Shown: positions 10,392 to 54,480 of the stretch, in pieces
Position numbering within the stretch: the first letter of the stretch is position 1
Layout: every line of letters begins with the position of its first letter
DNA from: Patescibacteria group bacterium
GTDB lineage: Bacteria; Patescibacteriota; Gracilibacteria; UBA1369; UBA12470
NCBI GenBank assembly: GCA_018816885.1
Contig: JAHIUS010000001.1
Span: forward strand, 8,028-72,027
Reading direction: 5' to 3'
Length of the DNA: 64,000 nucleotides
Translations under genes and position numbers: made by a program
Notes under the pieces: model-generated
What the model saw: the letters and a program-made list of their open reading frames with translations, nothing else
Databases searched by the model: none
What the model was told of the DNA's origin: nothing

Positions 10392-10440
10392 TGTTGTGAG
10401 TTAGTGGGGCATAGAGCATGCGGCCTTCGGCCTCTCTGGA

Positions 10441-13180: not shown

Positions 13181-13444
13181 TTATTTTGCCAATTTTCCTC
13201 CGTGACCTTTGAATTTCCTCGTGAAGGCGAATTCGCCCAGTCTATGTCCTACCATGTTTTCCGATACGAATACAGGTATGTGTTCTTTTCCGTTGTGGAC
13301 TGCAAATGTGTGGCCCACGAACTCAGGGGCTATTACCGAGGCTCTTGCCCAGGTTTTGATCACTTGCTTGTTTCCACCCATCGCCTGTACTTTTTTAAGA
13401 AGTTTGGGTTCTACGTATGGTCCTTTTTTTGATGATCGTGACAT
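13181..13444 (-). CDS. rpsS: 30S ribosomal protein S19
   Basis: 87 aa, [10 protein letters not shown]...HNGKEHIPV. Confidence 0.95.
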
Positions 13445-13502
13445 GATTTAGTGTGTTAGTGGGGCATAGGGCACGGGGTATGCGGGCTTCGCCCTCGGTG
13501 GA

Positions 13503-15329: not shown

Positions 15330-15377
15330 GTGATGCGTGGGCATTGGGCATGCGGGCTTTGCCCTCTGTGGAATTAA

Positions 15378-15962: not shown

Positions 15963-16101
15963 GATTGTATAGGTTAGGGCATTGGGCAGAGGACATAGGG
16001 CATGTGGCCGTTGGCCTCTGTGGATAGGAGATTGGTCTTTTGAGTCCGCGTGGGAGCCTTACTCCTGTTCTAACTTGCAAATTTTAAACTTGCGGGGGTA
16101 C

Positions 16102-20895: not shown

Positions 20896-20973
20896 TTTAG
20901 TTGATAGTTAGTTGTTGTTTGAGGCATAGGGCAGAGGGCATGGGGCATGCGGAAAATCCCTGAATGCGGGAGT

Positions 20974-21006: not shown

Positions 21007-21456
21007 TTACACTGCTTTCAGTGGGCAGTTGTTGTTTGCTAATTTCTTGAGCTTGCTAGCTTCGCCTAATAACTTTCCTAATATATTGGAGTTTTGTAAA
21101 GCTGTCAGCAGTTGGCATCTGAAGAGCGAAATTTCTCCTATTATTTCGCCTTCGCGAAGAGGGAATGAAATTTTATTTAATTCTGTTTTTAGTGCTTCGC
21201 TATCTATGCTGGGATTGCCGCGTACAATTTTTCTTAATTCCAAAATTAATGTCTCAAATGATATTGAGACTTCTTGGGGTGATTGGTATTGTTCCAGGTC
21301 AACTTCTCCTCCTAATTGGAATAAAGCACATGTACGAGGTGTTCTATCTTCTAAATATGTGCCTTGGTTATGTATGACTTCTTCTTTTGTGCCACAATGA
21401 GTTTCTGTATCAATTGTGGCTTCTTTTCCCCCGGGTAATTCTGCTCGATGAATCAT
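21007..21456 (-). CDS. Hypothetical cytoplasmic protein
   Basis: 149 aa ORF with its own near-consensus promoter; no family recognised. Confidence 0.55.
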   Translation of the reverse strand: MIHRAELPGGKEATIDTETHCGTKEEVIHNQGTYLEDRTPRTCALFQLGGEVDLEQYQSPQEVSISFETLILELRKIVRGNPSIDSEALKTELNKISFPLREGEIIGEISLFRCQLLTALQNSNILGKLLGEASKLKKLANNNCPLKAV

Positions 21457-21484
21457 TATTGTGTTTTATTAAAAACAAGAGCTT

Positions 21485-21512
21485 ATTTTATCTTCTATTT
21501 CTCTTTTGTCAA
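21485..21512 (-). promoter_or_regulatory. Near-consensus promoter for ORF 21007-21456
   Basis: Minus-sense TTGACA, 16 nt, TAAAAT. Confidence 0.55.
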
Positions 21513-21532
21513 ATATCCTGAATTAACTTTTG

Positions 21533-22057
21533 CTAGATATAACTTTCCAGTATATCAACAAGTGTGTTGTTTGATTCGATGAAGGTGTTGTATGCGTCGT
21601 AGATTGTCGTGTCGTGTTCGGTTACGAGGCTGAGATCTTCCAGGTATAAGCCTGTTTTGTAATACTCGATCATTGCCAGATATTTTGCCAGGTATTCTTC
21701 TCCAAGAGAGATATAGTTTTGAAATTCCACTCTTACTTCTGTTTGCTGGGCCTCGTCTTTACTGCTTAGTTCCAAGATGCTTGCTGAGTTACTGATTATT
21801 TCTTTTGCCAAGTCGTAAGATGTTTCCATGTCTGTTGTGTCTATTTCAGACTCTTCGGTAACCAGGTCGGGGATGCTTATATCGTATACGAGAATGGTGT
21901 TTTCTATTGTTTCCGAGGTTTGATTCAGGGATTCTACAACTTTGTTGTTGTATTGGATAGGAGATAGTTTTTCAAAAAACTCCATATTGCATCCGGCTAG
22001 CAATATAAAGGAAATTGTTATGATCACTCCGATTAGTGAAACTATTATTTTTTTCAT
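21533..22057 (-). CDS. Putative lipoprotein
   Basis: 174 aa, signal peptide with lipobox LLAGC, acidic mature part. Confidence 0.65.
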   Translation of the reverse strand: MKKIIVSLIGVIITISFILLAGCNMEFFEKLSPIQYNNKVVESLNQTSETIENTILVYDISIPDLVTEESEIDTTDMETSYDLAKEIISNSASILELSSKDEAQQTEVRVEFQNYISLGEEYLAKYLAMIEYYKTGLYLEDLSLVTEHDTTIYDAYNTFIESNNTLVDILESYI

Positions 22058-22125
22058 TTATTTTTGTTTAAAAAAACCACTTGAATCGTAACGCATGGGC
22101 TTTTAGAAATCAAGCTTTGGAAAGC

Positions 22126-22572
22126 CTAAAACCTTGCATAGTGAGCGAATGCTTTATTGGCTGCGGCCATCTTGTGGGTATCCTCTTTCTTTTTCATTGC
22201 GGTACCTGTTTGGTTAGCTGCATCAAGTAGTTCCTGGGCCAGTCTTTTGTAGATCGGAGAGCCTTTTTTGTCTCTTGCCGCCAATAAAATCCAACGGAAT
22301 GCGAGCATGAGCTGCCTTTTTGGAGTTACTTCGATTGGGATTTGGTAAACTCCTCCTCCGATTCTTTTTGGTCTGACTTCCATGTTTGGCTTAATGTTTT
22401 CGATTGCCCTCTCAAATACCTGTATCGGATCTTTACTCCCTGTGTTTGCGAGTTCTTTCAAAGTGTCTGCGAAAATCTTGCGTGCGATGGTTTTCTTGCC
22501 ATCCAGCATTATGTAGTTGATGAATTTCTCTTGCAAAGGTGTTGAGTTTTGGGGAATGTATGTTGTTGGCAT
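22126..22572 (-). CDS. rpsG: 30S ribosomal protein S7
   Basis: 148 aa, S7-like. Confidence 0.95.
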   Translation of the reverse strand: MPTTYIPQNSTPLQEKFINYIMLDGKKTIARKIFADTLKELANTGSKDPIQVFERAIENIKPNMEVRPKRIGGGVYQIPIEVTPKRQLMLAFRWILLAARDKKGSPIYKRLAQELLDAANQTGTAMKKKEDTHKMAAANKAFAHYARF

Positions 22573-22639
22573 GTGGCTTATGGCTTATAGCGTATGGTGT
22601 GGGCATGGGGCAGAGGGCATGGGGCCTCTGTGGATTTTT

Positions 22640-23053
22640 TTATTCTTTTGGTCTTTTGGCACCGTAGAGAGAGCGGCTTTGTTTGCGGCCTTCTACTCCT
22701 TGGGTATCCATTGTACCTCTGATTATGTGATATTTAACACCAGGTAGATCTTTTACTCTTCCTCCTCGGATTGTTACTACCGAGTGTTCTTGAAGGTTGT
22801 GGCCTTCTCCCGGGATGTAAGCATTAACTTCTTCACCGTTGGTGAGTCGAACTCTTGCTACTTTACGAAGGGCTGAGTTAGGTTTCTTCGGTGTTTTGGT
22901 TGTTACTTTGGTACAAACTCCTCTTTTTTGCGGGCATGCAAGTCTGCTTGAGCTGTTTTTGATCGTGTTGGCGATCAGCTGCATAGCCGGAGATTTACTC
23001 TTGCGGACTTTCTTCTTTCGTCCTTTTCTGATGATTTGGTTTATTGTTGGCAT
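22640..23053 (-). CDS. rpsL: 30S ribosomal protein S12
   Basis: 137 aa, [12 protein letters not shown]...[10 protein letters not shown]. Confidence 0.97.
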
Positions 23054-23123
23054 GAGGCATAGGGCTTAGGGCATGGATGCTGGCGCAGTTTATAACAGTT
23101 TTACTGCCTGTGCAAGAGAATTT

Positions 23124-26100
23124 TTATTCTTGTTCGGCTATTCCGGCTCGTCGTCTGTAAACTTCACCGGCGGGGATTAGTTTACCGATAATGACATTTT
23201 CTTTCAGGCCTTTGAGTTCGTCTACTCTCTTAGTTGTTGCTGCTTCGACCAGTACTCTTATTGTTTCCTGGAATGATGCTGCTGAAAGCCAGCTTGGAGT
23301 GTGAAGCGAAATCCTAGTTAGTCCGAGGAGCAGTCTTTCGGTTTCGGCAGCTTCCTTACCTTCTTTTTTTGCCTCGGTATTAGCTTTTTCTATTCCAATC
23401 GCATCGGCGACTTCTCCCGGCAGATATTTGGTGTCGCCCGAGTTGACAATGCGAGCTTTTGAGAACATCTGTCTGACAATAATCTCGATATGTTTGTCGT
23501 TGATTGTTTGTCCTTGTGAGGCGTAGATGCTTTGGACTTCGGTCATGATGTATTTCTGAACCGCGTATCTGTCCGCCATTTTCAGAAGTTCGCGTAAGTT
23601 GCTGTGTCCCGCCGTCAATGGTGATCCGACTGCCACAAGGTCCCCGGTTTTTACTTTTAGTGTTCTGTTTAGAGGGATTTCGTAAACTTTTTCGACACTT
23701 TCGTCTGTTAGCACGACTATTGTGTTTTTTGTAATCTTTTTGACGGTTCCTTTTGTTTCGACGTTTATAATCTGTTTCTTGGTTTTCCCTTTAGCCAGGA
23801 TGTCGTCTACTTTTACTTTGTCGCCCACCTTGACTTTTATTTCATGTCCTTTTGCGAGGTGGTAGGTTTCTTCAATAGGATTGTCGCTTAGTATGGTGAT
23901 CTTGTTTGAAGAGGTTCCTTGTCGAAGTTTTGCTTTTCCGTTTAGCTCCGAGAGGATTGCAGGTGCTTTCGGAGGTCTTGCTTCAAAAAGTTCTTCTACT
24001 CGAGTAAGACCTTGCGTGATGTCCGATTCATCGGCGACACCACCCATGTGGAATGTACGCATGGTGAGCTGTGTTCCCGGTTCTCCGATCGATTGCGCAG
24101 CTATAATTCCGACCGCTGTTCCGCGTTGTACCGTTTTGTTTGTTCCGAGGTCTTTTCCATAACATTTTTGACAAATACCTCCTTCTGTCTGACATGTCAT
24201 TATGGATCTTACTGCTACGGTATCTATGTCTTTGTTCATGATATCTCTTACTTGTGAGTTTTCGAGTTGTGTTCCTTTTTTTATTAGGATTTCTCCGGTT
24301 TGCGGGTCTACCAGATTTTCAGCCAAGGTTCGTCCGAATATTCTGTGTTCGAAAGCTTCTCCGATTTTTTCGCTTTCTTCGGCTGTGATGTAGTGACTGT
24401 GATTGTTGCCGCAGTCATCTTCTTTAATTACAACATCCTGTACCGCATCAACCAGACGCCTTGTCAGGTAACCGGCTTCAGCAGTTTTCAAAGCTGTATC
24501 GGATTTACCTTTACGGCCTCCATGTGTTGCAATGAAGTACTCAAGAATAGTGAACCCTTCTTTCAGGTTGGATTTAATTGGAAGCTCGATTGTTCGTCCG
24601 GCCGGATTTGCAACCAGTCCTTTCATTCCGCAGAGCTGAGTGACCTGTCCCCAGTTACCACGAGCTCCCGAATCGATCATGTACAGAATGTCGTTTTCAG
24701 GGCTGAAGTTCTTGATCATGAAGGTTGCGAGATCTGATTTGGCGCGTGACCAGATTTTGATAGTTTGCGTGTATCTTTCATCATCTGTTACGAGGCCTTT
24801 CCAGTATTGATTGTTGATGTTTTTTACGATTTCCGTTGCTTTTTCTACTATTTCCGCTTTTTCCGCCGGAACTTCCATGTCTGATCCCGCTATCGAAAGT
24901 CCGGATAGTGTTGCGTATGTGAATCCGATTTTCTTGATTGCGTCTGAAAGTTTTACGCTTGTTTCGGAATCGGTTTTTTCTATTGATTCGGTTATGAGAT
25001 TTTTCAGGTCATTTTTTTTCATGACGTTGTTTTTGTATCTCAACTCTTCAGGAAGTATCTGATTGAATAAAACTCTACCTACTGAAGTTTCTGTTAATTC
25101 TCCGTTGATTCTTACCTTTATTTTTGCTTGAAGGTGTATATTTCCGAGTTCATGGGCGAGGATGGCTTCTTTTTCGTCGCTGAATATCATGCCTTCACCT
25201 TTTTTCTTGTCGTGGACTTGGGTTAGGTAGTAGCAACCCAGCACCATATCTTGACTGGCTGTGATAATAGGCATACCTGCCGATGGTTTCAGAAGGTTGC
25301 TTGTTGATGCCATTAGTTTTTTGGCTTCTTCCTGAGCTCTTTTTGATAAAGGTATATGAACGGCCATTTGATCTCCATCGAAGTCGGCGTTGAAGGCCGC
25401 ACATACCAACGGGTGGATTTGAATGGCTTTACCTTCTACCAGAACAGGTTGGAAAGCTTGGATCCCAAGTCTGTGGAGGGTAGGCGCTCTGTTTAGAAGC
25501 ACATAATGGCCCTGAGTGACTTCTTCCAGGATGTCCCATACTTCTTTTTTGCCCAGTGTTATTAGTTTTTCCGCGTTTTTGATGTTGTGGGCGTATCCGT
25601 TTTTGATCAATTTTCCTATTACGAAAGGCTTGAAAAGTTCAAGCGCCATCGCTTTTGGCAGTCCGCATTGGTTCAGTTTAAGTTTTGGGCCGACTACGAT
25701 TACACTTCGACCGGAATAGTCCACACGCTTACCGAGTAGGTTTTGTCGGAATCGTCCTTGTTTACCTTTCAACATATCCGATAGTGAGCGAAGTTTTCTT
25801 TTGTCTCCCGTGTTGAAAACCGTTCTGTTTTGACGAGCAGAGTTGTTTAATAAAGTGTCTACAGCTTCCTGCATCATTCTTTTTTCGTTCCTTGTGATTA
25901 CTTCCGGAGCACCGATTGCTATGAGCTTTTTCAGTCGGTTGTTTCTGTTGATTACTCTTCTGTAAAGATCGTTCAGGTCGGAAGCTGCGAAACGCCCTCC
26001 GTCAAGCTGAACCATCGGTCTTAAGTCCGGCGGAATTACCGGTAATATTTTCATGATCATCCATTCCGGCTTGATGCCCGCTTTTAGCGAAGATCCGATA

Positions 26101-26963
26101 AGTTTAATTCTTTTTATTAGTTTTTTCTTCTTTTGTCCGGTTGCTTTAACGCAATCTATTTCGAGTTGGTCTCGCAGCTCTTCGAGGTTCATGTTTTTTA
26201 TGATTTCCCGGAGTGCTTCCGCTCCTGTTCCGGCCTTGAAGATGTGTCCGAATTTCATAGAGATGTCCCGGTATTGGATCTCTGAAAGAACTGTTCCGGT
26301 TTTCAGTGCGGAAAGGTCGTCTTTTGCTTTTTGGTGTTGTTCGACGAGCTCTTCTATTTTCAGGGCGCTTTCCTTTTCGATTTCGGAAAGGAGTTTTTCC
26401 TTCTCTTTTTCAGGAATTCCTTTGTTTTTCTCGATTTCTTTAGTTTTTTCTTTGTGTTCTTTTGTGAGGTTTTTTTTGTAATTTTGAAACTCATCTTTCA
26501 ATTGTTCTTGCGCTTCTTCCCGTGCTTTTGCATCAACATTTGTAACTATGTACGCCGCGAAGTAAACCACTTGCTCGAGAGTTTTTACAGGCAAATCAAG
26601 CAGCAGTCCGATACGACTTGGTGTTGATCTCAAAAACCAGATGTGTGTTACCGGTACAGCGAGTTTTATGTGCGCCATCCTTTCTCTTCTGACGATTGAC
26701 CGGGTTACTTCGACTCCGCATTTTTCACAGACCACCCCTTTGTATCTGACTCTTTTGTATTTCCCGCAACAACATTCCCAGTTTTTTGTAGGGCCGAAAA
26801 TTCTTTCACAGAAAAGACCGTCTTTTTCCGGTTTTTGGGTTCTGTAGTTTATGGTTTCCGGTTTTTTTACTTCGCCGTGAGACCAGGCCAAAATGTCTTC
26901 AGGTGAAGCTACGGAGATGGCTACTGAATCGAATGTTACCGGAGCTTTTTTGTTGTTTTGCAT
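23124..26963 (-). CDS. rpoC: DNA-directed RNA polymerase subunit beta-prime
   Basis: 1279 aa, zinc motif [20 protein letters not shown], catalytic NADFDGD. Confidence 0.98.
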
Positions 26964-26993
26964 TTGGAGTGTTTAATTAAAGTTGTAAATTGT

Positions 26994-27086
26994 GGGGTAT
27001 AGGGCATAGGGCATGCGGCATAGGGCATGCGGCATAGGGCATGCGGCATAGGGCATGCGGGCCTGATGGCCCTCGGTGGAGTGGGT
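26994..27086 (+). repeat. Heptamer/14-mer array (GCATAGG GCATGCG x4) plus stop-proximal hairpin
   Basis: Direct reading: tagggcatgcggca repeated four times at 14-bp period, then GGGCC-TGAT-GGCCC hairpin and CTCGGTGGA flank. Confidence 0.9.
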
Positions 27087-28052
27087 TTAAGAGAAGATTA
27101 ATTCTTTTAGGAAATAAAAATATACTAGGAGATAGAGACCTCCTTCGAAAAGAGAGATATGCTTGCTTAGGCTTGAGAAGACAAGGAATGCAGTTGCGGT
27201 TATCAAGAAAACTACTCCGACCGAAAGCATTATATCCGGTATGATTAATGTTCCGAAAAGTCCCGAAACCCCCATTACCATTGTGCTGTTGAAAATATTT
27301 GATCCGAATATATTACCGAGAACCATCCCTGCTTGTTTTTTTCTTGCTGCCTGGATTGATACTACCAATTCCGGCAGGGAAGTTCCTATCGCTATAACGC
27401 TTCCGGCGACTACGGCGGTTCCGATATTCAGTATTTGAGAGATTTTTACGACAGATTCTACTGTCCAGTTCGCGCTTATTGCTATGAATATGGTTGATAT
27501 TAGAATAATAACAGGGATGTGCCAGTGTAGTTTTTTCTTTGGTATATCTTTTGTCGTTTGTTTTACCCGGGCTTCGAGGTTTTTTTCAGATTTGTGGCTG
27601 TGGATTAGATAAGCAATATATATGATATAAGCCAATATCATTATGATGGCTTCTACCAGCGTGAAAACTCCGTCTCTAACCGATATGAATAAAATTGCCG
27701 TTATGCATACAAGTATTGGTATGTCGAGGTTTTCGCTTAACTTTCTGTTATAAAGAGAGTTTCCCGATGCAAGTGCGGCAAGTCCTACTACAAGAAGTAT
27801 GTTTGTGATATTTGATCCTATTACATCTCCACTTACTATTTCGCTGTGTCCTTGAATTACTGCTATTATTGAAGTTATAAGTTCAGGCATTGATGTTCCT
27901 AAACTTACTATCGTTGCGCCGATAATAAATTGAGAGACACCAAGAGCTACTCCGGCTTTTTCTGAATATGCCGTAAAATAGTCGGCAGACTTGACCAGTA
28001 CGGCCAGGCTGATAAGCATTATCAGGGTCCAAATTATTAATTCGTGAGACAT
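27087..28052 (-). CDS. Ca2+/Na+ antiporter (CaCA/YrbG family)
   Basis: Polytopic membrane protein with two alpha-repeat motifs (GTSMPEL, GTSLPEL). Start trimmed to MSHELIIW; the upstream extension is repeat-derived. Confidence 0.8.
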   Translation of the reverse strand: MSHELIIWTLIMLISLAVLVKSADYFTAYSEKAGVALGVSQFIIGATIVSLGTSMPELITSIIAVIQGHSEIVSGDVIGSNITNILLVVGLAALASGNSLYNRKLSENLDIPILVCITAILFISVRDGVFTLVEAIIMILAYIIYIAYLIHSHKSEKNLEARVKQTTKDIPKKKLHWHIPVIILISTIFIAISANWTVESVVKISQILNIGTAVVAGSVIAIGTSLPELVVSIQAARKKQAGMVLGNIFGSNIFNSTMVMGVSGLFGTLIIPDIMLSVGVVFLITATAFLVFSSLSKHISLFEGGLYLLVYFYFLKELIFS

Positions 28053-28125
28053 AGGGTGTGGGGCATTGGGTATTGGGCATGTGGGCCTGACGGCCATCTA
28101 TGGGTGGCCCCGCCTTGGCGGGGCC
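28053..28125 (+). repeat. GGGNNNN array, hairpin and 9-bp-stem palindrome GGCCCCGCC-TT-GGCGGGGCC
   Basis: Five G-tracts 28054-28085; GGCC-TGAC-GGCC hairpin; palindrome 28106-28125. Confidence 0.9.
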
Positions 28126-28134
28126 GGTTGATTG

Positions 28135-28704
28135 TTATAGTCCGAGATCCATGTCGATGTCGGCTTTGTCGTCTTCTTCTTTCTCTTCTTTCTCTTCTTT
28201 CTCTGTTTTTTTCTCTTCAGAAGCATCCTCTTCTATTGGTTCTTCGACTGGAGTTTCTTCGGCGACTTCTTCTTTTTCTGTTTTTTCCTCTGTTTCTTCT
28301 TCAGGTGCTTCAATAGAGGCGTTTTCGATCATTGGTTGTTCGGTTGCTGGGATATAATCGTCTTCGTCTTGGCCGCGTTTTTCAAGCATTATCAGGTCTT
28401 GAACGATTACTTCCGTTTTGAATTTTTTGACTCCTTCGGGAGTATCCCAGCTGCGAGTTTTCAAGTATCCTTCTATGTATAGAAGTTTCCCTTTTCGGAC
28501 ATATTTTTCACAGATGTCCGATAGGCGTGACCAGGCTACAAGTTCGTGGAATTCGGCCATGTTGTGTTTTTCTCCGTTTGAGGTTATCCATTGCCGGTTT
28601 GTTGCAAGTCCGAATGTGCAGACCGCTTGGCCGCTTCCGGTTTGTCGTACTTCGGGGTCCCTTGTTACATTCCCTATCAGTACTACTTTGTTTACACTTC
28701 TCAT
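28135..28704 (-). CDS. ssb: Single-stranded DNA-binding protein
   Basis: OB fold (NKVVLIGNVTRDPEVRQT...) with a long acidic tail; start trimmed to MRSVNKV. Confidence 0.9.
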   Translation of the reverse strand: MRSVNKVVLIGNVTRDPEVRQTGSGQAVCTFGLATNRQWITSNGEKHNMAEFHELVAWSRLSDICEKYVRKGKLLYIEGYLKTRSWDTPEGVKKFKTEVIVQDLIMLEKRGQDEDDYIPATEQPMIENASIEAPEEETEEKTEKEEVAEETPVEEPIEEDASEEKKTEKEEKEEKEEDDKADIDMDLGL

Positions 28705-28732
28705 GTTTTTATGGTTAAGATGTAGAGTTTTC

Positions 28733-31700
28733 TTATTTATCAATTATGATTTCTTCTTCTTCAATGATTTCTTCTCTTCCGTAAGTTTCTTCTTCCTCTT
28801 CTTCAAGAGCTTTTCCTTGTTTGGTTTGCATGAGTTCGACGCTTAGGCCGAGACTTTGCAGCTCTTTTACGAGTACATTGAAACTTTCCGGTGTTCTTGG
28901 TTTTCTGATCGGTTCATCTTTTACTATAGATTCGTAGGCTTTTGCGCGGCCGTATACATCATCGGATTTGATTGTTAGCATTTCCTGAAGTGTGTGAGCT
29001 GCTCCGTAAGCTTCGAGCGCCCATACTTCCATCTCTCCGAATCTTTGTCCTCCATGTTGTGCTTTACCTCCCAGAGGCTGCTGCGTGACGAGAGAGTAAG
29101 GTCCTACCGATCTTGCGTGAATTTTGTCTTCAATCAAGTGGTTCAGTTTCATTATGTATGTAATTCCGACTGTTGTTTCGTGGTCGAAAGGTTCACCGGT
29201 GCGGCCGTCATAAAGCTGAATTTTCCCTGATGCAGGGAGATTGGCTTCATCTAACAGCTCTAAGGTTTGCTTGTTGGTTACGCCATCCAGGGCAGGTGTT
29301 GCGATTTTGAAGCCCAGTTCTTTGGCCGCCCATCCCAGATGGGTTTCCAGGATCTGCCCGATATTCATACGACTGGTTACGCCGAGAGGGTTAAGTATGA
29401 TGTCAACAGGGCGTCCGTCCGGCAAATGAGGCATATCTTCGACAGGTACGATGATGGAGATGACACCTTTGTTGCCGTGTCGTCCCGCTACTTTGTCTCC
29501 GACCGATACTCTTCTTGTTTGTGCGACATTTACTTTGATTTGTTGGTTTACGCCGGTTGGGAGTTCATCGCCTTCTTTTCTGTCAAAAACCTGGATGTTT
29601 ACAACTTTTCCTCCTTCTCCTCCAGGCAGTCTTAATGAGGCGTCTTTTACATCGCGGGCTTTTTCTCCGAAAATCGATCTGAGCAGACGCTCTTCCGCAG
29701 TTAGTTCAGTTTCTCCTTTCGGTGTGATTTTACCTACCAAAATGTCTCCTTCACGAACTGCAGCTCCGATTCGCACAATGCCTTTTTCGTCGAGGTCTTT
29801 CAGTTTTGCTTCACCCACATTCGGGATATCGCGAGTGATAACCTCCGGTCCGAGCTTGGTATCGCGGATGTCGACTGTAAATGTCTCGATGTGTACCGAG
29901 CTGTATGTGTCTTTGTGAACGAGTTTTTCCGATAAAATTACGGCATCTTCGAAGTTGTATCCCTGCCAGCTCATATAGGCTACAAGCAAGTTTTGGCCCA
30001 AAGCGAGTTCGCCGTCTTCCGTTGCCGCTCCGTCCGCGAGGACATCGCCTTTTTTAACTTCCTGACCTTTTACGCAAGTTGCTCTTTGATGGAAGCAGGT
30101 TGCTTGGTTTGATCTTTCGTAAACTCTCAGGTTGTAAGTCTTCTTTTTGCCGTTTGAATACATCACTGTGATTTCGTCGGCGTCTACATAACGGACTGTT
30201 CCGCCCCCTTCGGCCAAGATGACTTGTCCGGAACTTTCAGCCGTGATTTTTTCCATACCCGTTCCTACTACAGGTGAGTGAGGTTTTAAAAGTGGGACAG
30301 CTTGACGCTGCATGTTCGATCCCATCGATGCTCGAGTATTATCGTCGTGCTCAAGAAACGGGATCAAAGATGTTGTTACGGAAATGATCTGTTTCGGGGA
30401 TACGTCGATGTGTGTGAGATCTTTGTGATGTGTAAGGACAGCTTCACTTCCCAGTCGAGAGGCGACACGGTTTTGGGTAAATTCCCCTTTTTCGGTAAGT
30501 TCGGAGTTTGCTTGCGCGATCGCCAGTTCCATTTCGTCTTCGGCATCGTAATATGTAACTTCGTTTGTGACATAAGTTCTTACAGGCACTACCTTGAGAT
30601 CTTTAATTTTCGTTAATTTTTCCGCGATCTCTTTTGTGATTTTGATTCCGGATTTGACGATAGATTTATTCCCGTCCTTAATTTCTCCTGCGGCTGTTCG
30701 GTTGACCAGGTCTTTTATTGTATTTGGACATTCTCTTGAAACTTTTTGAAAAGGAGTTTCGATGAATCCGTATTTGTTGATTTTGGCATAAGTTGCGAGA
30801 TGGACAACAAGTCCGATATTCGGCCCTTCCGGTGTGGCGATAGGACAAATTCTTCCATAGTGAGAGGTGTGTACATCGCGAACATCGAATGATGCTCTTT
30901 CTCTTGATAGTCCACCCGGCCCCATTGCAGACAGACGTCTTTTGTGAGCGAGTTCTGCAAGCGGGTTGGTTTGATCCATGAATTGCGATAGTTGCGAGCT
31001 TGCGTAAAACTCTCTAAGCGCGGCTGTGATCGGTCTTGAGTTGATAAGTTGTGTCGGAGTGATCGCATCCAGTTCCATTACCGTCATTCGATCTTTTGCG
31101 ATACGATCTGTTCTTAGTAGTCCGACTCGGAATTTGTTTTGTACGAGTTCGCCGACTGTTCTGATTCTTCTGTTTGCAAGATGATCGATGTCGTCCGGTT
31201 TTCCATTGCCGTTGTTTAGATTGATTAGGTGGCGGAGGATGAGGATCATGTCCTCTACCTGGAATGTGTGGTATTTTTTATTGTTTGGGGTATCGAGTTC
31301 GAATCTGCGGTTTAGTTTGTAGCGGGCGACTTCTCCCATGTCGTATTTTTTGTAGTCAAAAAACATCGATTCGATAAGTGCTTTTGCGTTTTCCGGTGTC
31401 GCGAGGTCTCCCGGGCGGATTTTCTTGTAGATGCTTTTGTAAGCTTCGTCGACGGTTTTTGCCGTGTCTTTTTGAAGCGTTAGGAAGATGTAGTCGTTTA
31501 TCGGGTCTTTCGTGATGTCTTTGAAAAGATCCATAATTTTTTTATCCGTGTCGTATCCGAAAACTCTGAGCAGGGAAGTAATATGGATTTTGCGTTTGCG
31601 GTCGATTTTTACCGTGATGATACCTTTTTTGTCGGTTTCCACTTCGAGCCATGCGCCTCTTTTTGGAATGATTTTTGCGTTGTGCAGTCCGGGTGCTGCG

Positions 31701-32152
31701 GAATTTTTTGAGAAAAATACTCCCGGTGATCTTACGAGCTGACTAACTACAACTCTTTCGATACCGTTAATAATGAAAGTTCCCGCGTCTGTCATTAGAG
31801 GGATGCTGCCTAAAAAGACATCCTGTTCTTTGATTTCGCCGCTTTCTTTGTTGATAAGTTGTACATGGACTTTTAAAGGGGCTTCGTAGGTTAAGTTTTT
31901 CTCCCTGCATTGTGCCGGTGAGTATTTGGCTTCACCGGTTTCATGATTTAAGAGATGAAGTTCCAATTTTTTACCTGAAAAGTCTGTGATTGGAGAAACC
32001 TCATCGAGAAGTTCGCGAATTCCGTTCTTGAGGAACTCTTCATAGCTGTTGAGTTGAATCTCGATAAGGTTTGGTAGAGGATAAACAAAAGGATCCTCCT
32101 TTAAAAAGACTCTTCCATTTGAGCCTCTTGCGGGTGTTTTTGTGTTAGGCAT
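28733..32152 (-). CDS. rpoB: DNA-directed RNA polymerase subunit beta
   Basis: About 1139 aa from MPNTKTPARG; full beta subunit. Confidence 0.98.
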   Translation of the reverse strand: MPNTKTPARGSNGRVFLKEDPFVYPLPNLIEIQLNSYEEFLKNGIRELLDEVSPITDFSGKKLELHLLNHETGEAKYSPAQCREKNLTYEAPLKVHVQLINKESGEIKEQDVFLGSIPLMTDAGTFIINGIERVVVSQLVRSPGVFFSKNSAAPGLHNAKIIPKRGAWLEVETDKKGIITVKIDRKRKIHITSLLRVFGYDTDKKIMDLFKDITKDPINDYIFLTLQKDTAKTVDEAYKSIYKKIRPGDLATPENAKALIESMFFDYKKYDMGEVARYKLNRRFELDTPNNKKYHTFQVEDMILILRHLINLNNGNGKPDDIDHLANRRIRTVGELVQNKFRVGLLRTDRIAKDRMTVMELDAITPTQLINSRPITAALREFYASSQLSQFMDQTNPLAELAHKRRLSAMGPGGLSRERASFDVRDVHTSHYGRICPIATPEGPNIGLVVHLATYAKINKYGFIETPFQKVSRECPNTIKDLVNRTAAGEIKDGNKSIVKSGIKITKEIAEKLTKIKDLKVVPVRTYVTNEVTYYDAEDEMELAIAQANSELTEKGEFTQNRVASRLGSEAVLTHHKDLTHIDVSPKQIISVTTSLIPFLEHDDNTRASMGSNMQRQAVPLLKPHSPVVGTGMEKITAESSGQVILAEGGGTVRYVDADEITVMYSNGKKKTYNLRVYERSNQATCFHQRATCVKGQEVKKGDVLADGAATEDGELALGQNLLVAYMSWQGYNFEDAVILSEKLVHKDTYSSVHIETFTVDIRDTKLGPEVITRDIPNVGEAKLKDLDEKGIVRIGAAVREGDILVGKITPKGETELTAEERLLRSIFGEKARDVKDASLRLPGGEGGKVVNIQVFDRKEGDELPTGVNQQIKVNVAQTRRVSVGDKVAGRHGNKGVISIIVPVEDMPHLPDGRPVDIILNPLGVTSRMNIGQILETHLGWAAKELGFKIATPALDGVTNKQTLELLDEANLPASGKIQLYDGRTGEPFDHETTVGITYIMKLNHLIEDKIHARSVGPYSLVTQQPLGGKAQHGGQRFGEMEVWALEAYGAAHTLQEMLTIKSDDVYGRAKAYESIVKDEPIRKPRTPESFNVLVKELQSLGLSVELMQTKQGKALEEEEEETYGREEIIEEEEIIIDK

Positions 32153-32271
32153 GTGAATAGTTGTTAGTTGTAAGTGAGTGTGGAGTTTCAAGCACCCAGT
32201 GCCAAGTGAGTGGGGTTTCGCCTGGTGGCGAAACGGCTTGATTGGTAGTGGAGTCGCTTTCGCGGCCAGGC

Positions 32272-32310
32272 AATAAAAAACAGTAAAAGCATGGTTTGTT
32301 TGCTTTTACT
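32272..32310 (-). terminator. Intrinsic terminator or attenuator in the rpoB upstream region
   Basis: Minus-sense AGTAAAAGCA, 9-nt loop, TGCTTTTACT, followed by GTTTTTTATT. Confidence 0.6.
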
Positions 32311-32366
32311 ATCTTCAATAACTCATCCGGTGCCCTCTTCAGGGGCGTTCTGATAGTACCGCGAGG

Positions 32367-32394
32367 ATTATAAGGTGCGTTACCTGAAAGTCAA
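32367..32394 (-). promoter_or_regulatory. Near-consensus promoter immediately after the TIM-barrel gene stop
   Basis: Minus-sense TTGACT, 16 nt, TATAAT. Confidence 0.55.
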
Positions 32395-32401
32395 GCGGTT
32401 T

Positions 32402-33148
32402 TTACGCTTTCGCAAATTTTTCTATAAATTCTTTGGATTCTTTCAGGAGTTTAAACATTTCTGCCCGGTCTCTTACCTTTAGATAGTTCGGTTTGATTTT
32501 AATGGATAATGCTCCTTTGAATCCGTCTGATGCCAGTTTGCTGATGAAGCTTTCCAGAGGGAGGTTTCCTTTTGTTAGAACTTGGTAGCCTTTGTTTCTG
32601 TAAAAGTTGGAAATGTGTACATGGACGAGGAATTTTTGAAGGCTTCCATATGCGTACATGAGGTCCTCTTTCTTCTCGGCGACCCTGGCTGTATCGAGGC
32701 AAGCGTGTTTGAATCTTTTGAGTTCCGACAGATTGTTCATTGCTCTCTCCGGAATGAATCCGAGCCACATTTTGTTTGGGGCGTTTTCGAGTGCTATTGA
32801 GATGTTTTCTTTTTTTCTGATGTTTGGAACCTCTTTTTTGAGCCAGGCCGCATATTTTCTGTCTAAAATTTTCGGTGGTTGGATCACTATAACTTTTGCA
32901 TTTACTTTTTTGGCCATTGTTACCGCTTCTTCGAGGTCTTTTTCTTTTGCATTGTCCAGAGCCTGAACAGCCAGGACGGGTATTTCAGTGGTTGATGAAA
33001 GTTTGGCGATATATTCCGGGTCCAGTGTGTCCAGGTCATTTTTGTCGAGTACGAGGTCGATTCCGTCAAACCCGAGCTCTTTGGCAAACTCGAAAATACG
33101 GTTGAGGCCGTAGCCTTTTAATGAGTCTGTAGTCAGGGTGATTTTCAT
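32402..33148 (-). CDS. Sugar phosphate isomerase/epimerase-like TIM-barrel protein (xylose isomerase-like fold)
   Basis: 248 aa; general resemblance to AP endonuclease 2 / xylose isomerase-like TIM barrels. No search done. Confidence 0.55.
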   Translation of the reverse strand: MKITLTTDSLKGYGLNRIFEFAKELGFDGIDLVLDKNDLDTLDPEYIAKLSSTTEIPVLAVQALDNAKEKDLEEAVTMAKKVNAKVIVIQPPKILDRKYAAWLKKEVPNIRKKENISIALENAPNKMWLGFIPERAMNNLSELKRFKHACLDTARVAEKKEDLMYAYGSLQKFLVHVHISNFYRNKGYQVLTKGNLPLESFISKLASDGFKGALSIKIKPNYLKVRDRAEMFKLLKESKEFIEKFAKA

Positions 33149-33244
33149 TTTTGGTGTTTGTTAGGGCATGGGGCATTGGGCATGTGGCACTGCGAGCCTC
33201 TGCGGGGTTCCGCTGTGCGGAACGGTTTCATTGTAGTTGATTTT

Positions 33245-34546
33245 TTATCTTGGATCTATTGTTTTTTTGTTGCCCATGTATTTCTGCAGGACTTCCGGGA
33301 CCGCTATTGAGCCGTCTTTTTGCTGGTAGATTTCCAGGATTGGGATTAGGACTCTCGGTGATGCTATGCAGGTGTTGTTCAATGTGTAGCAGAATTTGAT
33401 TTTGCCTTCATTGTCTTTATATCTTAGGTTTAATCTTCTGGCTTGAAAGTCCAAGAAGTTCGAACATGAATGGGTTTCGCCGTAAGATTCTCTGCTTGGC
33501 ATCCAAGTTTCTATGTCGTTTTTGTAATATTGGCCTTGTCCCATGTCTCCGGTGCAGACTGCGACAACGCGGTAGGGGAGATTCAAGTCTTGCAGAACTT
33601 CTTCGGCGTTTTTCAGGAGTAAATCATGCATTTCTTGGCTTTTTTCCATGTTTGCTTCACACACGATTACTTGTTCGATTTTTTGGAATTGATGGACGCG
33701 GTAAAGGCCGTGTGTGTCTTTCCCGTAAGTTCCGGCTTCACGGCGGTAACAGGTTGACCATCCGCAAGATTTTAAAGGTAAATCTTCCTGCGAAAGAATT
33801 TCGTCCGAGCGGTATGAGGTCAGGGCTACTTCGGCTGTTCCGGCCAGGTATTTGTTGTCAGATTCCACTCCTTCTCCTCGTACTCTTTCTACTCCGACTG
33901 CATAGGCTTGTTCTTCGCCACCCGGGAAGTAAGAGGTTCCCATCATCGGCTGATAATTGACGATGTTTGGGACGATCATTGGGGTGAAGCCTTTTTCTAT
34001 GAGTTTGTCCCAGGTGTACATGAGGAGGGCAACTTCGAGCTGGGCTCCTTCGTTTTTCAGGTAATATGAGCGGGTTCCGGCGACTTTTGCGCCTCTTGGC
34101 ATGTCGACAAGGTCGCATTTTTCCGCCAGGGTGACGTGGTCGAGAGGCTGAAAGTCGAATTTCGGTAGTTCTCCCCAGGTTCTTAGCTCGACATTTTCGG
34201 TATCGTCTTTTCCTTCGGGTGTCTCTTTCGATTGCGGGGTTGGAACCAGTAAAGCCAGGCTTAAGAATTCCGCTTCGAGTTCTTGCAGTTTTGGGATGAG
34301 CTTTTTCTCTTCTTCGGAGACTTTTTGCATCTCTGCGATTGCGGATTTTTTCTCTTCGCCGTCTAATTGCGCGATTTTTTCCGATGCTTTGTTCTTTTCC
34401 GCTTTTAAAGCTTCCACTTGTTTGAGGATTTCTCGTTTTTCTTCATCTATTTGCAAAAGTTTATCGACGTCGAGTTTTATTCCTTTCTGCTTGCAGGTTT
34501 TTTTGATTAAATCGGGGTTTTCGCGGATTAGTTTGGGATCTAACAT
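33245..34546 (-). CDS. serS: Seryl-tRNA synthetase
   Basis: Start trimmed to MLDPKLIRENP; coiled-coil N-arm and class II core. Confidence 0.95.
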   Translation of the reverse strand: MLDPKLIRENPDLIKKTCKQKGIKLDVDKLLQIDEEKREILKQVEALKAEKNKASEKIAQLDGEEKKSAIAEMQKVSEEEKKLIPKLQELEAEFLSLALLVPTPQSKETPEGKDDTENVELRTWGELPKFDFQPLDHVTLAEKCDLVDMPRGAKVAGTRSYYLKNEGAQLEVALLMYTWDKLIEKGFTPMIVPNIVNYQPMMGTSYFPGGEEQAYAVGVERVRGEGVESDNKYLAGTAEVALTSYRSDEILSQEDLPLKSCGWSTCYRREAGTYGKDTHGLYRVHQFQKIEQVIVCEANMEKSQEMHDLLLKNAEEVLQDLNLPYRVVAVCTGDMGQGQYYKNDIETWMPSRESYGETHSCSNFLDFQARRLNLRYKDNEGKIKFCYTLNNTCIASPRVLIPILEIYQQKDGSIAVPEVLQKYMGNKKTIDPR

Positions 34547-34655
34547 AATGATAGGGTTTAGTAGGGCATGGGGCATTGGGCATTGTAGCTGAAAGTTTGC
34601 TTGAGTAAAAGATGGAGGCGTGTTTTAATTGGGATCTTTTTTAAAAAAAATAATT

Positions 34656-35303
34656 ATGAGTTTAGAAGAAAATGAATTGGGACTTGCAGAGAAATTGGTC
34701 GCTTCTTATAAGAGGAATAAAGCGATAGTTGAGTTATCCCGGAAATCTCTTTCGGCTGAAGGGAAAAGACTTTTTTACTTGCTAGATGTTGCAGGTTCAA
34801 ATATTGATAACGATGCGAGCTTATTATCATGGATTGTTGATCATTTGGAGCATTTTGCTGATCCCAATAGGTTTGACATACGAATGCTTGAAGAGGCTTA
34901 CGTTGTTTTGTCTCAGATGCCTTGTACTGAGTCGGTTGCTGATTTACTGAGAGGCGTTATTTTATGTCGTCATGGTCTTGTTCGGCTGGGAATTTTGGAA
35001 GATGGTGATGATGTGGAAATCATTGGTTGGAATCCTGAGGTTGGTCATCGTATTATGATTAAGTCCGGCCAGTTTTTAAGAACTGTTGATATAGAGTTAG
35101 TTCGAGGTGGTTATGCTTTTTTCAGCTTACCCAATGGTTTGGCCAGAATCCCTATTGAGAATTTAATGCTTCGTAAAAACTTGCAGTTACCAGGAGGCGT
35201 ATCAGTTGGTCCCGGATGGGAAATTGCGAATCAAGAAAAGGTTCGATGGCTTGGGGAAGAGGAGACTGCGCGGCTTGCGGATGAGGGGATTATCTTTGAG
35301 TAA
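34656..35303 (+). CDS. Hypothetical protein
   Basis: 215 aa from MSLEENELG; A-rich leader typical of plus-strand genes here; no family recognised. Confidence 0.55.
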   Translation: MSLEENELGLAEKLVASYKRNKAIVELSRKSLSAEGKRLFYLLDVAGSNIDNDASLLSWIVDHLEHFADPNRFDIRMLEEAYVVLSQMPCTESVADLLRGVILCRHGLVRLGILEDGDDVEIIGWNPEVGHRIMIKSGQFLRTVDIELVRGGYAFFSLPNGLARIPIENLMLRKNLQLPGGVSVGPGWEIANQEKVRWLGEEETARLADEGIIFE

Positions 35304-44101: not shown

Positions 44102-44240
44102 AGTACCAAGTAATGAGTACCAAGTAATGAGTACCAAGTAATGAGTACCAAGTAATGAGTACCAAGTAATGAGTACCAAGTAATGAGTACCAAGTAATGA
44201 GTACCAAGTAATGAGTACCAAGTAATGAGTACCCAGTACC
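44102..44240 (+). repeat. Tandem repeat, 14-bp unit AGTACCAAGTAATG, 9 copies plus a partial copy
   Basis: Direct reading; perfect copies 44102-44227. Confidence 0.95.
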
Positions 44241-50039: not shown

Positions 50040-50158
50040 AGATCAAAGACTCTAGATCAAAGATCAAAGATCAAAGATCAAAGATCAAAGATCAAAGATC
50101 AAAGATCAAAGATCAAAGATCAAAGATTATAGATCAAAGATTATAGATGCTAGATTAT
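50040..50158 (+). repeat. Tandem heptamer array, 17 units in register (10 perfect AGATCAA)
   Basis: Direct reading; carries a GATC about every 7 bp across 50054-50123. Confidence 0.95.
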
Positions 50159-53325: not shown

Positions 53326-54390
53326 CTACAATCCCATCCCAATTAACCCCAATATCAACCCAAATATCGCGACCATTGCTCCGATGGTCCAGAAGTGCAT
53401 GACGACTTTGTATTCGGGCCAGCCGACGGCTTCGAAGTGGTGATGGATTGGAGCTATTTTGAAGACTTTTTTGCCGTTGCGGAGTTTTTTTGAGGTGAGC
53501 TGGATTATTACGGAAAGGGTCTCGATTACGAATATGAATGCTATGAAGGGGAGAATTAGCACTGTGTTGGTCATCATGGCGATTACTCCCATTGTGGCGC
53601 CGAGAGAGAGCGCGCCTGTGTCGCCCATGAAGAATCTGGCGGGTGGAATGTTGAACCAAAGAAATGCCGTTGTGGAGCCGCAGATTACTGCGCAGAAAGC
53701 GGATAGTATAAAAAGTCCTTTGACGTAGGCGAGGGCGCCGAGAGCGCCGAAAGTTATGATGATTAAGCCGCCTGCGAGGCCGTCCAGGCCGTCTGTGATG
53801 TTTACCGAGTTGGCGGAGGCGATGATGATGAAGATGAATAGAGGGATATACCAAAGTCCCATTTGGAAGTCGCCGATTCCGGGAATATGGATTTGATCGT
53901 AGCCGAGTTTGAAGTAGAAAAAGAGTCCTCCAAGCACTGCGAACAGGGTTAGCCAGAAGAGTTTGGGTTTGATGTTGATACCTTTGCTTTTGCCCCAGCC
54001 TTTGAGGTTGAAAACATCATCGACCGCTCCGAGCAAGGCTACTGAAATCAGTGTGAATATGGGAAGATAGGTTTCGTTTCTGTTCCAGAGGGAGTGTTCG
54101 AATACTCCGCAAAGTGAGAGCAGATGCGTGATTCCGATTACGATGAGGACTGTTCCCCAGATTAAGATCCCGCCCATTGTGGGGGTCCCGGATTTTTTGA
54201 TGTGTAGTGCGGAAAAAAGTTTCGTTGCTCGTCCGTCCGGGGCTGTTTCGCGGATTTGTTTGCCGATTTTGTATTTGTGAAGTAGGGCAATGAAAGGTTT
54301 GGCTGCGAGAAGCGCGATTATGAAAGCCAGGCCGAATGAGCCGAAGATCAGGATGAGGTGGCGGACGGTGTCGGTGAGTGCGAATGGCAT
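53326..54390 (-). CDS. mraY: Phospho-N-acetylmuramoyl-pentapeptide transferase
   Basis: 354 aa polytopic; NSVNITDGLDGLA, PIHHHFE. Confidence 0.95.
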   Translation of the reverse strand: MPFALTDTVRHLILIFGSFGLAFIIALLAAKPFIALLHKYKIGKQIRETAPDGRATKLFSALHIKKSGTPTMGGILIWGTVLIVIGITHLLSLCGVFEHSLWNRNETYLPIFTLISVALLGAVDDVFNLKGWGKSKGINIKPKLFWLTLFAVLGGLFFYFKLGYDQIHIPGIGDFQMGLWYIPLFIFIIIASANSVNITDGLDGLAGGLIIITFGALGALAYVKGLFILSAFCAVICGSTTAFLWFNIPPARFFMGDTGALSLGATMGVIAMMTNTVLILPFIAFIFVIETLSVIIQLTSKKLRNGKKVFKIAPIHHHFEAVGWPEYKVVMHFWTIGAMVAIFGLILGLIGMGL

Positions 54391-54432
54391 ATGGCGGATG
54401 GCTAATGGCTAATGGCTAATGGCTAATGGCTT
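54391..54432 (+). repeat. Tandem heptamer array ATGGCTA (6 units) abutting the mraY start codon
   Basis: Direct reading: atggcgg atggcta x4 atggctt. Confidence 0.95.
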
Positions 54433-54480
54433 GTTGCGTATGGATTTTAGCTTAAAAGTATGGTTTTCGGTAGTTTTTGG

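Follow-up and report, generated by a model that had tools for sequence, protein, structure and literature searches.

The adjacency of rpoB and rpoC is among the most conserved of bacterial gene pairs and is usually treated as near-invariant. In the window, the whole stretch of 64,000 nucleotides (nt) analyzed here (contig JAHIUS010000001.1 of assembly GCA_018816885.1, positions 8,028 to 72,027), the two genes are co-oriented but not adjacent; 1769 nt with two further genes, an ssb paralogue and a CaCA-family calcium/sodium antiporter gene, lie between them. Is this an accident of one genome or an inherited form of the RNA polymerase operon? The genome holding the window (G000; relatives carry other G-numbers, and families carry f-numbers) is a metagenome-assembled genome (MAG) of 1.26 Mb in 66 contigs. 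It belongs to the order Candidatus Peribacteria, ultra-small members of the Candidate Phyla Radiation (CPR). Comparison with the relatives indicates that the rpoB-rpoC pair split by ssb and CaCA is an old, inherited clade trait and not a quirk of G000. The interval is probably an intact rpoB-rpoC operon with two long-held passenger genes, that is, a lineage-specific operon form. As a variant of the rpoBC operon, the arrangement is real and conserved and has apparently not been described before, and it shows no new mechanism. It was not found in the literature on Peribacteria or Peregrinibacteria with rpoB, rpoC, or ssb, nor in that on genes between rpoB and rpoC.

Gene content of the rpoB-rpoC interval

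The minus strand holds every gene in the window from ~1 to 41,000, and the transcription order is serS, a TIM-barrel gene, rpoB, ssb, the CaCA antiporter gene, rpoC, rpsL, and rpsG. The order and coordinates of the four central genes, as given in the initial annotation, agree with the open reading frames (ORFs) and Pfam matches. The rpoB gene (28733-32152, minus strand) encodes an RNA polymerase beta subunit of 1139 amino acids (aa) with six Rpb2 domains (best E-value 2e-126) and 63-85% identity to rpoB across the order. The beta-prime subunit encoded by rpoC (23124-26963, minus strand) has 1279 aa and five Rpb1 domains.

The first interposed gene (28135-28704, minus strand) encodes an SSB of 189 aa, which matches PF00436 at 2.7e-34 with 117.8 bits (cut-off 26) and TIGR00621 with 142.4 bits (cut-off 53.95). 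Its matches among solved SSBs reach down to 1.3e-30 and include PDB 3vdy and the E. coli protein 1eyg (5.5e-23). The second gene (27087-28052, minus strand) encodes a CaCA protein of the YrbG/NCX_Mj type with 321 aa and two Na_Ca_ex repeats (1e-56). PF01699 matches it in two stretches covering the whole protein (191.5 bits), and TIGR00367 covers residues 7-314 with 200.5 bits (cut-off 179.65). Against NCX_Mj, the protein scored 6e-33, and its GTSMPE and GTSLPE motifs align with both GTSLPE repeats of that exchanger. By family criteria, the gene product is a YrbG-type Ca2+/Na+ antiporter, for which exchange activity is predicted. The gene start at 28052 agrees with the orthologues. In an exact-protein look-up, the SSB and a 336-aa ORF form of the CaCA protein were on record, and the 321-aa form was not.

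Distribution in the order, the class, and the phylum

For the order, we located rpoB, rpoC, ssb, and CaCA in 60 relatives from 19 families in addition to G000, and every rpoB-to-rpoC interval was fetched. Fifty-seven of the 61 genomes were evaluable; G007, G029, G055, and G059 were not. The ssb gene lies between rpoB and rpoC in 39 of these 57 genomes. The antiporter gene is found there in 12 genomes, which belong to four families. Eight of them carry ssb and CaCA together, namely G000, G001, G002, G003, and G006 of the window's own family, G022, G053, and G032, in which the arrangement is split over two contig ends. The other four (G012, G030, G052, and G060, from one family) carry CaCA only. 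Twenty-eight genomes from 13 families harbor ssb only, and three cases at contig ends bring this group to 31 genomes and 14 families. The remaining 14 genomes have no insert and a gap of 215-520 nt; they comprise all sampled members of f4, f7, and f18, plus G011, G025, G038, and G042.

The window's family keeps the neighborhood as well. G003 has serS, the TIM-barrel gene, rpoB, ssb, CaCA, and rpoC, and G002 preserves the order of G000 from rpoB through rpoC-rpsL-rpsG. A related-locus search with the CaCA protein returned two loci only, both already in the genome set.

The class was surveyed with 109 further genomes, many families of which have an rpoB-rpoC gap of 700-1000 nt. Twenty enlarged gaps were fetched, and 18 of them contained ssb (gaps of 700-1830 nt), in nine families (f24, f28, f30, f31, f33, f35, f36, f42, and f43). 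The gap of G158 holds ssb plus a 341-aa secreted protein, and those of G075 and G164 lack ssb and encode different secreted or membrane proteins. In f25 and f26, rpoB and rpoC are fully unlinked (G107, G127, G085, G154, and G108), with distances of 61-395 kb where a single contig holds both, and otherwise with the two genes on different contigs throughout. The distance is 311 kb in G107 (f25), yet ssb still lies ~800 nt downstream of rpoB, which we read as a relic of the old arrangement. A prepilin-like gene was seen 3' of rpoB in G127.

In the other classes of the phylum, the great majority of 143 genomes have rpoB next to rpoC. None of the eight enlarged gaps fetched from these classes contained ssb; the genes that they hold instead include ones for a 508-aa membrane protein, a 320-aa protein, and a 119-aa protein. 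In f53, a conserved 185-aa multi-pass membrane protein with the motif HEHRQVLTHS lies between rpoB and rpoC in all four genomes (G203, G250, G176, and G227), and in f52 and f121 the two genes are unlinked too (G175, G202, G226, G249, G271, G292, and G311), which makes three or four families of the phylum with complete unlinking. The rpoB-rpoC junction has thus been breached several times in the phylum, and within the fetched gaps the ssb insertion is specific to this class.

The initial annotation had presented the arrangement as an oddity of G000, which would become a clade marker if it proved to be the norm of the lineage. The survey largely supports the latter. Most evaluable genomes of the order have ssb between rpoB and rpoC, and this state recurs across the class; the CaCA insertion is old, of apparently single origin, and spread over four families.

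Origin of the two insertions

A tree of the 12 linked and 21 unlinked CaCA proteins of the same genomes places all linked copies in one clade (89/89; 90% of bootstrap trees). Together with three unlinked copies (G013, G043, and the second copy of G022), it belongs to a larger clade supported at 100/100, and the remaining 18 CaCAs are far from the linked ones. Deep branches separate the four families inside the linked clade. A single clade of 12 linked copies fits one old insertion of CaCA followed by many losses.

For ssb, a tree of rpoB plus rpoC from 90 genomes was rooted on f29, the most divergent TGA-recoded family. The ssb-bearing lineages start near the base of its non-recoded part, and one early gain with many losses would describe the history of ssb at this site. 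As a separate observation, rpoB and rpoC of G100 (f42) each contain ~80 in-frame TGA codons and have ssb between them, yet this genome groups within the non-recoded, ssb-bearing families on the tree.

The ssb paralogue and the question of function

G000 carries three ssb genes, of which the rpoBC-linked gene is the extra paralogue, a point that, like its divergent tip, goes beyond the initial annotation. The usual bacterial SSB ends in an acidic tip, DDD(I/L)PF, which recruits partner proteins. The linked protein has a normal SSB OB fold and a long acidic tail and departs from this canonical tip by ending in DIDMDLGL. The rpsF-linked copy on contig C8 ends in DEDLAF, and the third copy, on contig C25, ends in DDLPF. 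Among 36 linked copies from the order, DLGL is the end of 27, and ELGL or DFGL that of two others; the tip motif is written ID.DLGL. None of 14 rpsF-linked and none of seven DDLPF-type copies has the DLGL end. In a tree of 74 SSBs, the DDLPF type separates (100/99). In f4 (G010, G028, G040, G051, and G059), a single ssb match of the DDLPF type was found, without rpsF-linked and rpoBC-linked copies.

A conserved tip of its own raises the question of whether the linkage is functional, that is, whether the SSB paralogue and possibly the antiporter work with RNA polymerase. The SSB might, for example, bind the displaced non-template strand or act in transcription-replication conflicts, with ID.DLGL as its docking site for a subunit of the polymerase or for some other dedicated partner. 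The position of ssb between rpoB and rpoC is kept across the whole class, and in G107 it stayed close to rpoB where rpoC moved away. Additionally, the OB fold is intact and the tip is missing from the other two paralogues. However, 14 of the 57 evaluable genomes of the order and many families of the class are without the paralogue, and no relocated DLGL copy was found. In the insert-free genomes only the other two ssb types are present, and the linked ssb is therefore truly absent and not moved. Unlinked ssb genes of high identity in these genomes were considered as relocated DLGL copies and rejected; they adjoin rpsF and end in DDNMF, EDFNF, or similar tips. Because the paralogue is altogether missing from many genomes, it is not essential for the polymerase. 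The tips of linked copies outside the order also differ, showing other acidic-hydrophobic ends such as DDDFF..., EPLFEEE., or DDLNF. Finally, ssb likewise occurs in the unrelated rpsF-ssb-rpsR operon, where no functional tie is assumed.

On this balance, we regard a functional linkage as unlikely. A little less likely still is the specific proposal that the linked SSB is a dedicated partner of the transcription machinery, redirected by its ID.DLGL tip to RNA polymerase or to a transcription-replication conflict factor. If true, the CPR RNA polymerase would have an accessory, subunit-like protein not known before. The most likely meaning is passive, with housekeeping genes riding a constitutively transcribed operon of a streamlined genome, and the SSB paralogue with its own conserved tip is the one element that might hide new biology.

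Transcription of the interval

The spacer between rpoB and ssb measures 28 nt (28705-28732, minus strand), too short for a terminator plus a promoter. It spans 26-60 nt in most relatives checked, and the distance from the rpoB stop to the next gene, whichever it is, was 11-60 nt in most relatives checked and 115 nt in G008. The spacers between ssb and CaCA (28053-28134, minus strand) and between CaCA and rpoC (26964-27086, minus strand) are longer, with 82 and 123 nt. Measured in the relatives, the distance from the CaCA stop to the rpoC ATG is -1 nt in G060 and G052, 1 nt in G053, 2 nt in G030, 14 nt in G022, and 24-26 nt in G012, G001, and G002, within an overall range of -1 to 72 nt. The 123-nt spacer is therefore a secondary expansion, and the two spacers of G000 are longer because of the repeat modules inside them.

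Both spacers share a module that consists of a small GGCC-loop-GGCC hairpin followed by (C/T)ATGCCC heptads. The CaCA-rpoC spacer (fold z -3.67) contains a GGGCC-AUCA-GGCCC hairpin and then four perfect copies of GCATGCCCTATGCC (27003-27058). The ssb-CaCA spacer folds at -28.1 kcal/mol (z -2.47), and 10 nt past the ssb stop it holds a GC hairpin of eight pairs, GGCCCCGC-CAAG-GCGGGGCC (28106-28125, minus strand). The module also occurs in spacers of the S10, spc, and str arrays; 16 matches to its 14-mer were counted (0.13 expected), every one on the gene strand. Its presence between the ribosomal-protein genes of these arrays argues that it tolerates transcriptional read-through, and a role in RNA processing or stability is a possibility.

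A broader view of the repeats is given here for completeness. The recurring module lies just past stop codons, is gene-sense in all copies, and reads CCAC(A/C)GAGGGC-GAAG-GCCCGCATGCCC, followed by (C/T)(A/C)TGCCC heptads. On the minus strand, copies were found at 4974-5042, 7550-7596, 10392-10430, 13440-13502, 15345-15377, 15963-16030, 20896-20960, 22573-22639, 26964-27086, 28053-28134, and 33149-33244. In several of them, CAGAGG can pair with CCTCTG downstream. G000 is rich in intergenic tandem repeats of 7 or 14 nt (2786-2815, 44102-44238, 50040-50141, 54383-54443, 63330-63397, and positions 1-140 of contig C8), and on C8 the heptad CTCCTTA is repeated ~20 times directly 3' of the rpsF-linked ssb. 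Orthologous spacers in relatives carry other heptads (CTACTAC, GCCTAA, and CTAACTA).

The promoter scan of 22000-35000 called 14 sites against 15.5 expected from shuffled sequence, which is not above chance. The best site in this range is a sigma-70-like candidate, TTGACT-16-TATAAT (32367-32394, minus strand; 11/12 matches), located 8 nt past the TIM-barrel gene. Although a candidate only, it is the likely start of the rpoB transcription unit. The 249-nt rpoB leader contains a hairpin of 16 pairs with a U-run, which resembles an intrinsic terminator or an attenuator (32270-32316, minus strand). The fold of 32230-32366 has a z of -3.05, and the stem AGUAAAAGC.../...GCUUUUACU is followed by GUUUUUUAUU. 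This leader element shows that canonical terminators exist in G000. The terminator scan and folding found no hairpin with a U-run on the minus strand of 23124-32152, the rpoB-rpoC interval included. The initial annotation had noted the shared spacer modules and the lack of a recognizable terminator in the joining spacers, and folding and motif counts bear out both points.

Could the genes nevertheless form separate transcription units in G000? The GC hairpin would then end an rpoB-ssb transcript, and CaCA and rpoC would be expressed from weak spacer promoters. The two spacers are long enough for such signals, the GC-rich hairpin is stable, and sigma-70-like hexamers are recognizable before other genes of the array. 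However, the hairpin lacks a U-run and finds no conserved counterpart in G001 or G006, and the ribosomal-protein array downstream has a near-copy between two of its genes (5023-5042). Neither long spacer yielded a promoter call. A TTTAAT picked by eye 16 nt before the rpoC ATG was rejected as a promoter, as it has no acceptable -35 element. Moreover, the junctions of -1 to 26 nt in relatives leave no room for signals. Separate units are thus quite improbable.

Co-transcription of the four genes, as first suggested, stays the best reading of the sequence, given the 28-nt rpoB-ssb spacer and the nearly abutting CaCA and rpoC of the relatives. A CaCA stop placed -1 to +2 nt from the rpoC ATG in relatives argues for co-transcription together with translational coupling. 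Both are strongly implied for the ancestral arrangement and are likely in G000 with its expanded spacers.

Integrity of the assembly

Two other assemblies cover the interval. A Logan contig of SRR6514274 corresponds to window positions 34704-27031 with 100% identity, spanning serS to CaCA and stopping within the tandem repeat. Additionally, an ENA MEGAHIT contig of ERR2191545 corresponds to 28109-24597, also with 100% identity, and it spans the ssb hairpin, the CaCA gene, the CaCA-rpoC spacer, and 2.4 kb of rpoC. The same gene order is found in the independent MAGs G001, G002, G003, and G006. The chimeric junction against which the initial annotation had cautioned was not found, and the two identical assemblies together with the synteny kept in other genomes effectively exclude it. 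Although G000 is a MAG in 66 contigs with tandem repeats in the CaCA-rpoC spacer, an assembly or binning artefact, or a recent mobile-DNA insertion limited to G000, is effectively refuted by the identity of both other assemblies over both junctions, by orthologous arrangements in 11 other genomes including the single-contig genome G060, by linked CaCAs that are mutually 41-64% identical and form one clade, and by the absence of any transposase or integrase among the ORFs and Pfam matches of the interval.

Neighboring genes and further observations

Upstream of rpoB, serS (33245-34576, minus strand) and the xylose-isomerase-like TIM-barrel gene (32402-33148, minus strand), both identified by Pfam, stand where rplK-rplA-rplJ-rplL had been reported as missing, and the report was correct. 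In G000, rplK and rplA are on contig C52 and rplL is on contig C18. The absence of rplJL upstream of rpoB is order-wide instead of a feature of G000, and no rplL was found near rpoB in any of 58 genomes of the order. The region C52:44100-50400 reads nusG, an unknown 201-aa ORF, rplK, a DUF5671 protein gene, rplA, a metallo-beta-lactamase-fold protein gene, dut, tmk, and folD; the L11 operon (rplK-rplA) is itself interrupted in G000.

Directly 3' of rpoC, Pfam identified rpsL and rpsG (22126-23053, minus strand; spacers of 70 and 67 nt). Beyond rpsG are ORFs of 695 and 396 aa, which by length and position we take to be fusA and tuf. Two ORFs of 174 and 149 aa without a Pfam match (21007-22057) lie between rpsG and the putative fusA, so that the str operon is interrupted.

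In every genome of f28 (G098, G155, G069, and others), rpoB matches the query in two pieces within one frame of ~1290 aa. The pieces overlap at query residues ~478-528, which suggests a duplicated or rearranged, lineage-specific segment of the beta subunit.

Proposed history of the operon

We propose that, early in the ancestry of the class, an additional ssb copy became established in the rpoB-rpoC junction and evolved the tip ID.DLGL. A YrbG-type Ca2+/Na+ antiporter gene would have been inserted later and once, between ssb and rpoC, within the order, and repeated losses of both passengers would have followed. The four genes would be transcribed together from the promoter before rpoB, through the leader attenuator, and translation of rpoC would directly follow that of the antiporter. 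The passengers may in this way be expressed steadily and in step with growth, in a small genome whose promoters and regulators are few, by the same logic as in rpsF-ssb-rpsR. In G000, the internal spacers would have been secondarily lengthened by the spacer repeat modules of the genome.

Several points weigh against this reading. The ssb state is patchy and requires at least 13 changes on the rpoB plus rpoC tree; one early gain with many losses is still the more economical account, as the same gene recurs at the same site. The tree of 74 SSBs, built on the short OB domain, leaves the linked and rpsF-linked copies unseparated, and so allows a single origin of the ssb insertion without demonstrating it. 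The presence of CaCA in four families could reflect transfer between relatives by recombination in the conserved flanks. G004, G005, and G007 have no CaCA at all and no replacement, which makes the antiporter dispensable. Finally, with spacers of 82 and 123 nt and the GC hairpin, some transcripts of G000 may terminate or be processed within the interval, or rpoC may have a weak promoter of its own.

The survey indicates that, in one branch of the CPR, rpoB and rpoC have been held apart by one ssb paralogue for a very long time. In the relatives, a membrane transporter gene has been threaded in so tightly that its stop abuts the rpoC start. The arrangement offers a phylogenetic marker for Peribacteria and relatives, a well-defined family of SSB paralogues whose C-terminal tip is new, and a natural test case for the dependence of beta and beta-prime synthesis on adjacency.

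Comparison with known systems

G000 shares with the canonical rplKAJL-rpoBC operon of E. coli, B. subtilis, and most bacteria the placement of rpoB upstream of rpoC on one strand. The E. coli rplL-rpoB spacer has a terminator-like attenuator, which the rpoB-leader hairpin of G000 resembles. In many bacteria, rpsL-rpsG follow rpoC, and G000 is alike in this as well. The canonical operon differs in that G000 has two unrelated genes between rpoB and rpoC, and the order as a whole has no rplJL or rplKA linked to rpoB. A recent preprint calls the rplKAJL-rpoBC locus widely conserved and lists as departures only rplKA/rplJL separation and the cyanobacterial split of rpoC (10.1101/2025.04.14.645983).

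The linked genes have their own parallels. The rpsF-ssb-rpsR operon likewise embeds ssb in a growth-rate-linked housekeeping operon with no known functional tie. An rpsF-ssb copy is also present in G000 (C8); the rpoBC-linked ssb is additional to it and has a different tip. Specialized SSB paralogues such as the competence protein SsbB of Bacillus and Streptococcus, with PDB 3vdy among the matches, are likewise kept beside the main SSB and retain the OB fold while their C-terminal tail is altered. However, the linked ssb lies in the RNA polymerase operon, its tip is ID.DLGL, and it has no evident link to competence. The linked CaCA shares the ten-helix architecture, the two Na_Ca_ex repeats, and both GTS(L/M)PE signatures of the YrbG/NCX_Mj family, from which only its genomic position differs, and the linked copies form their own subclade of the CaCAs of the order.

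Other changes to rpoBC are the split of rpoC into rpoC1 and rpoC2 in cyanobacteria and plastids and the fusion of rpoB with rpoC in Helicobacter and Wolbachia. Both are also lineage-wide clade markers. They alter the genes themselves, whereas in Peribacteria the genes are intact and foreign genes are interposed.

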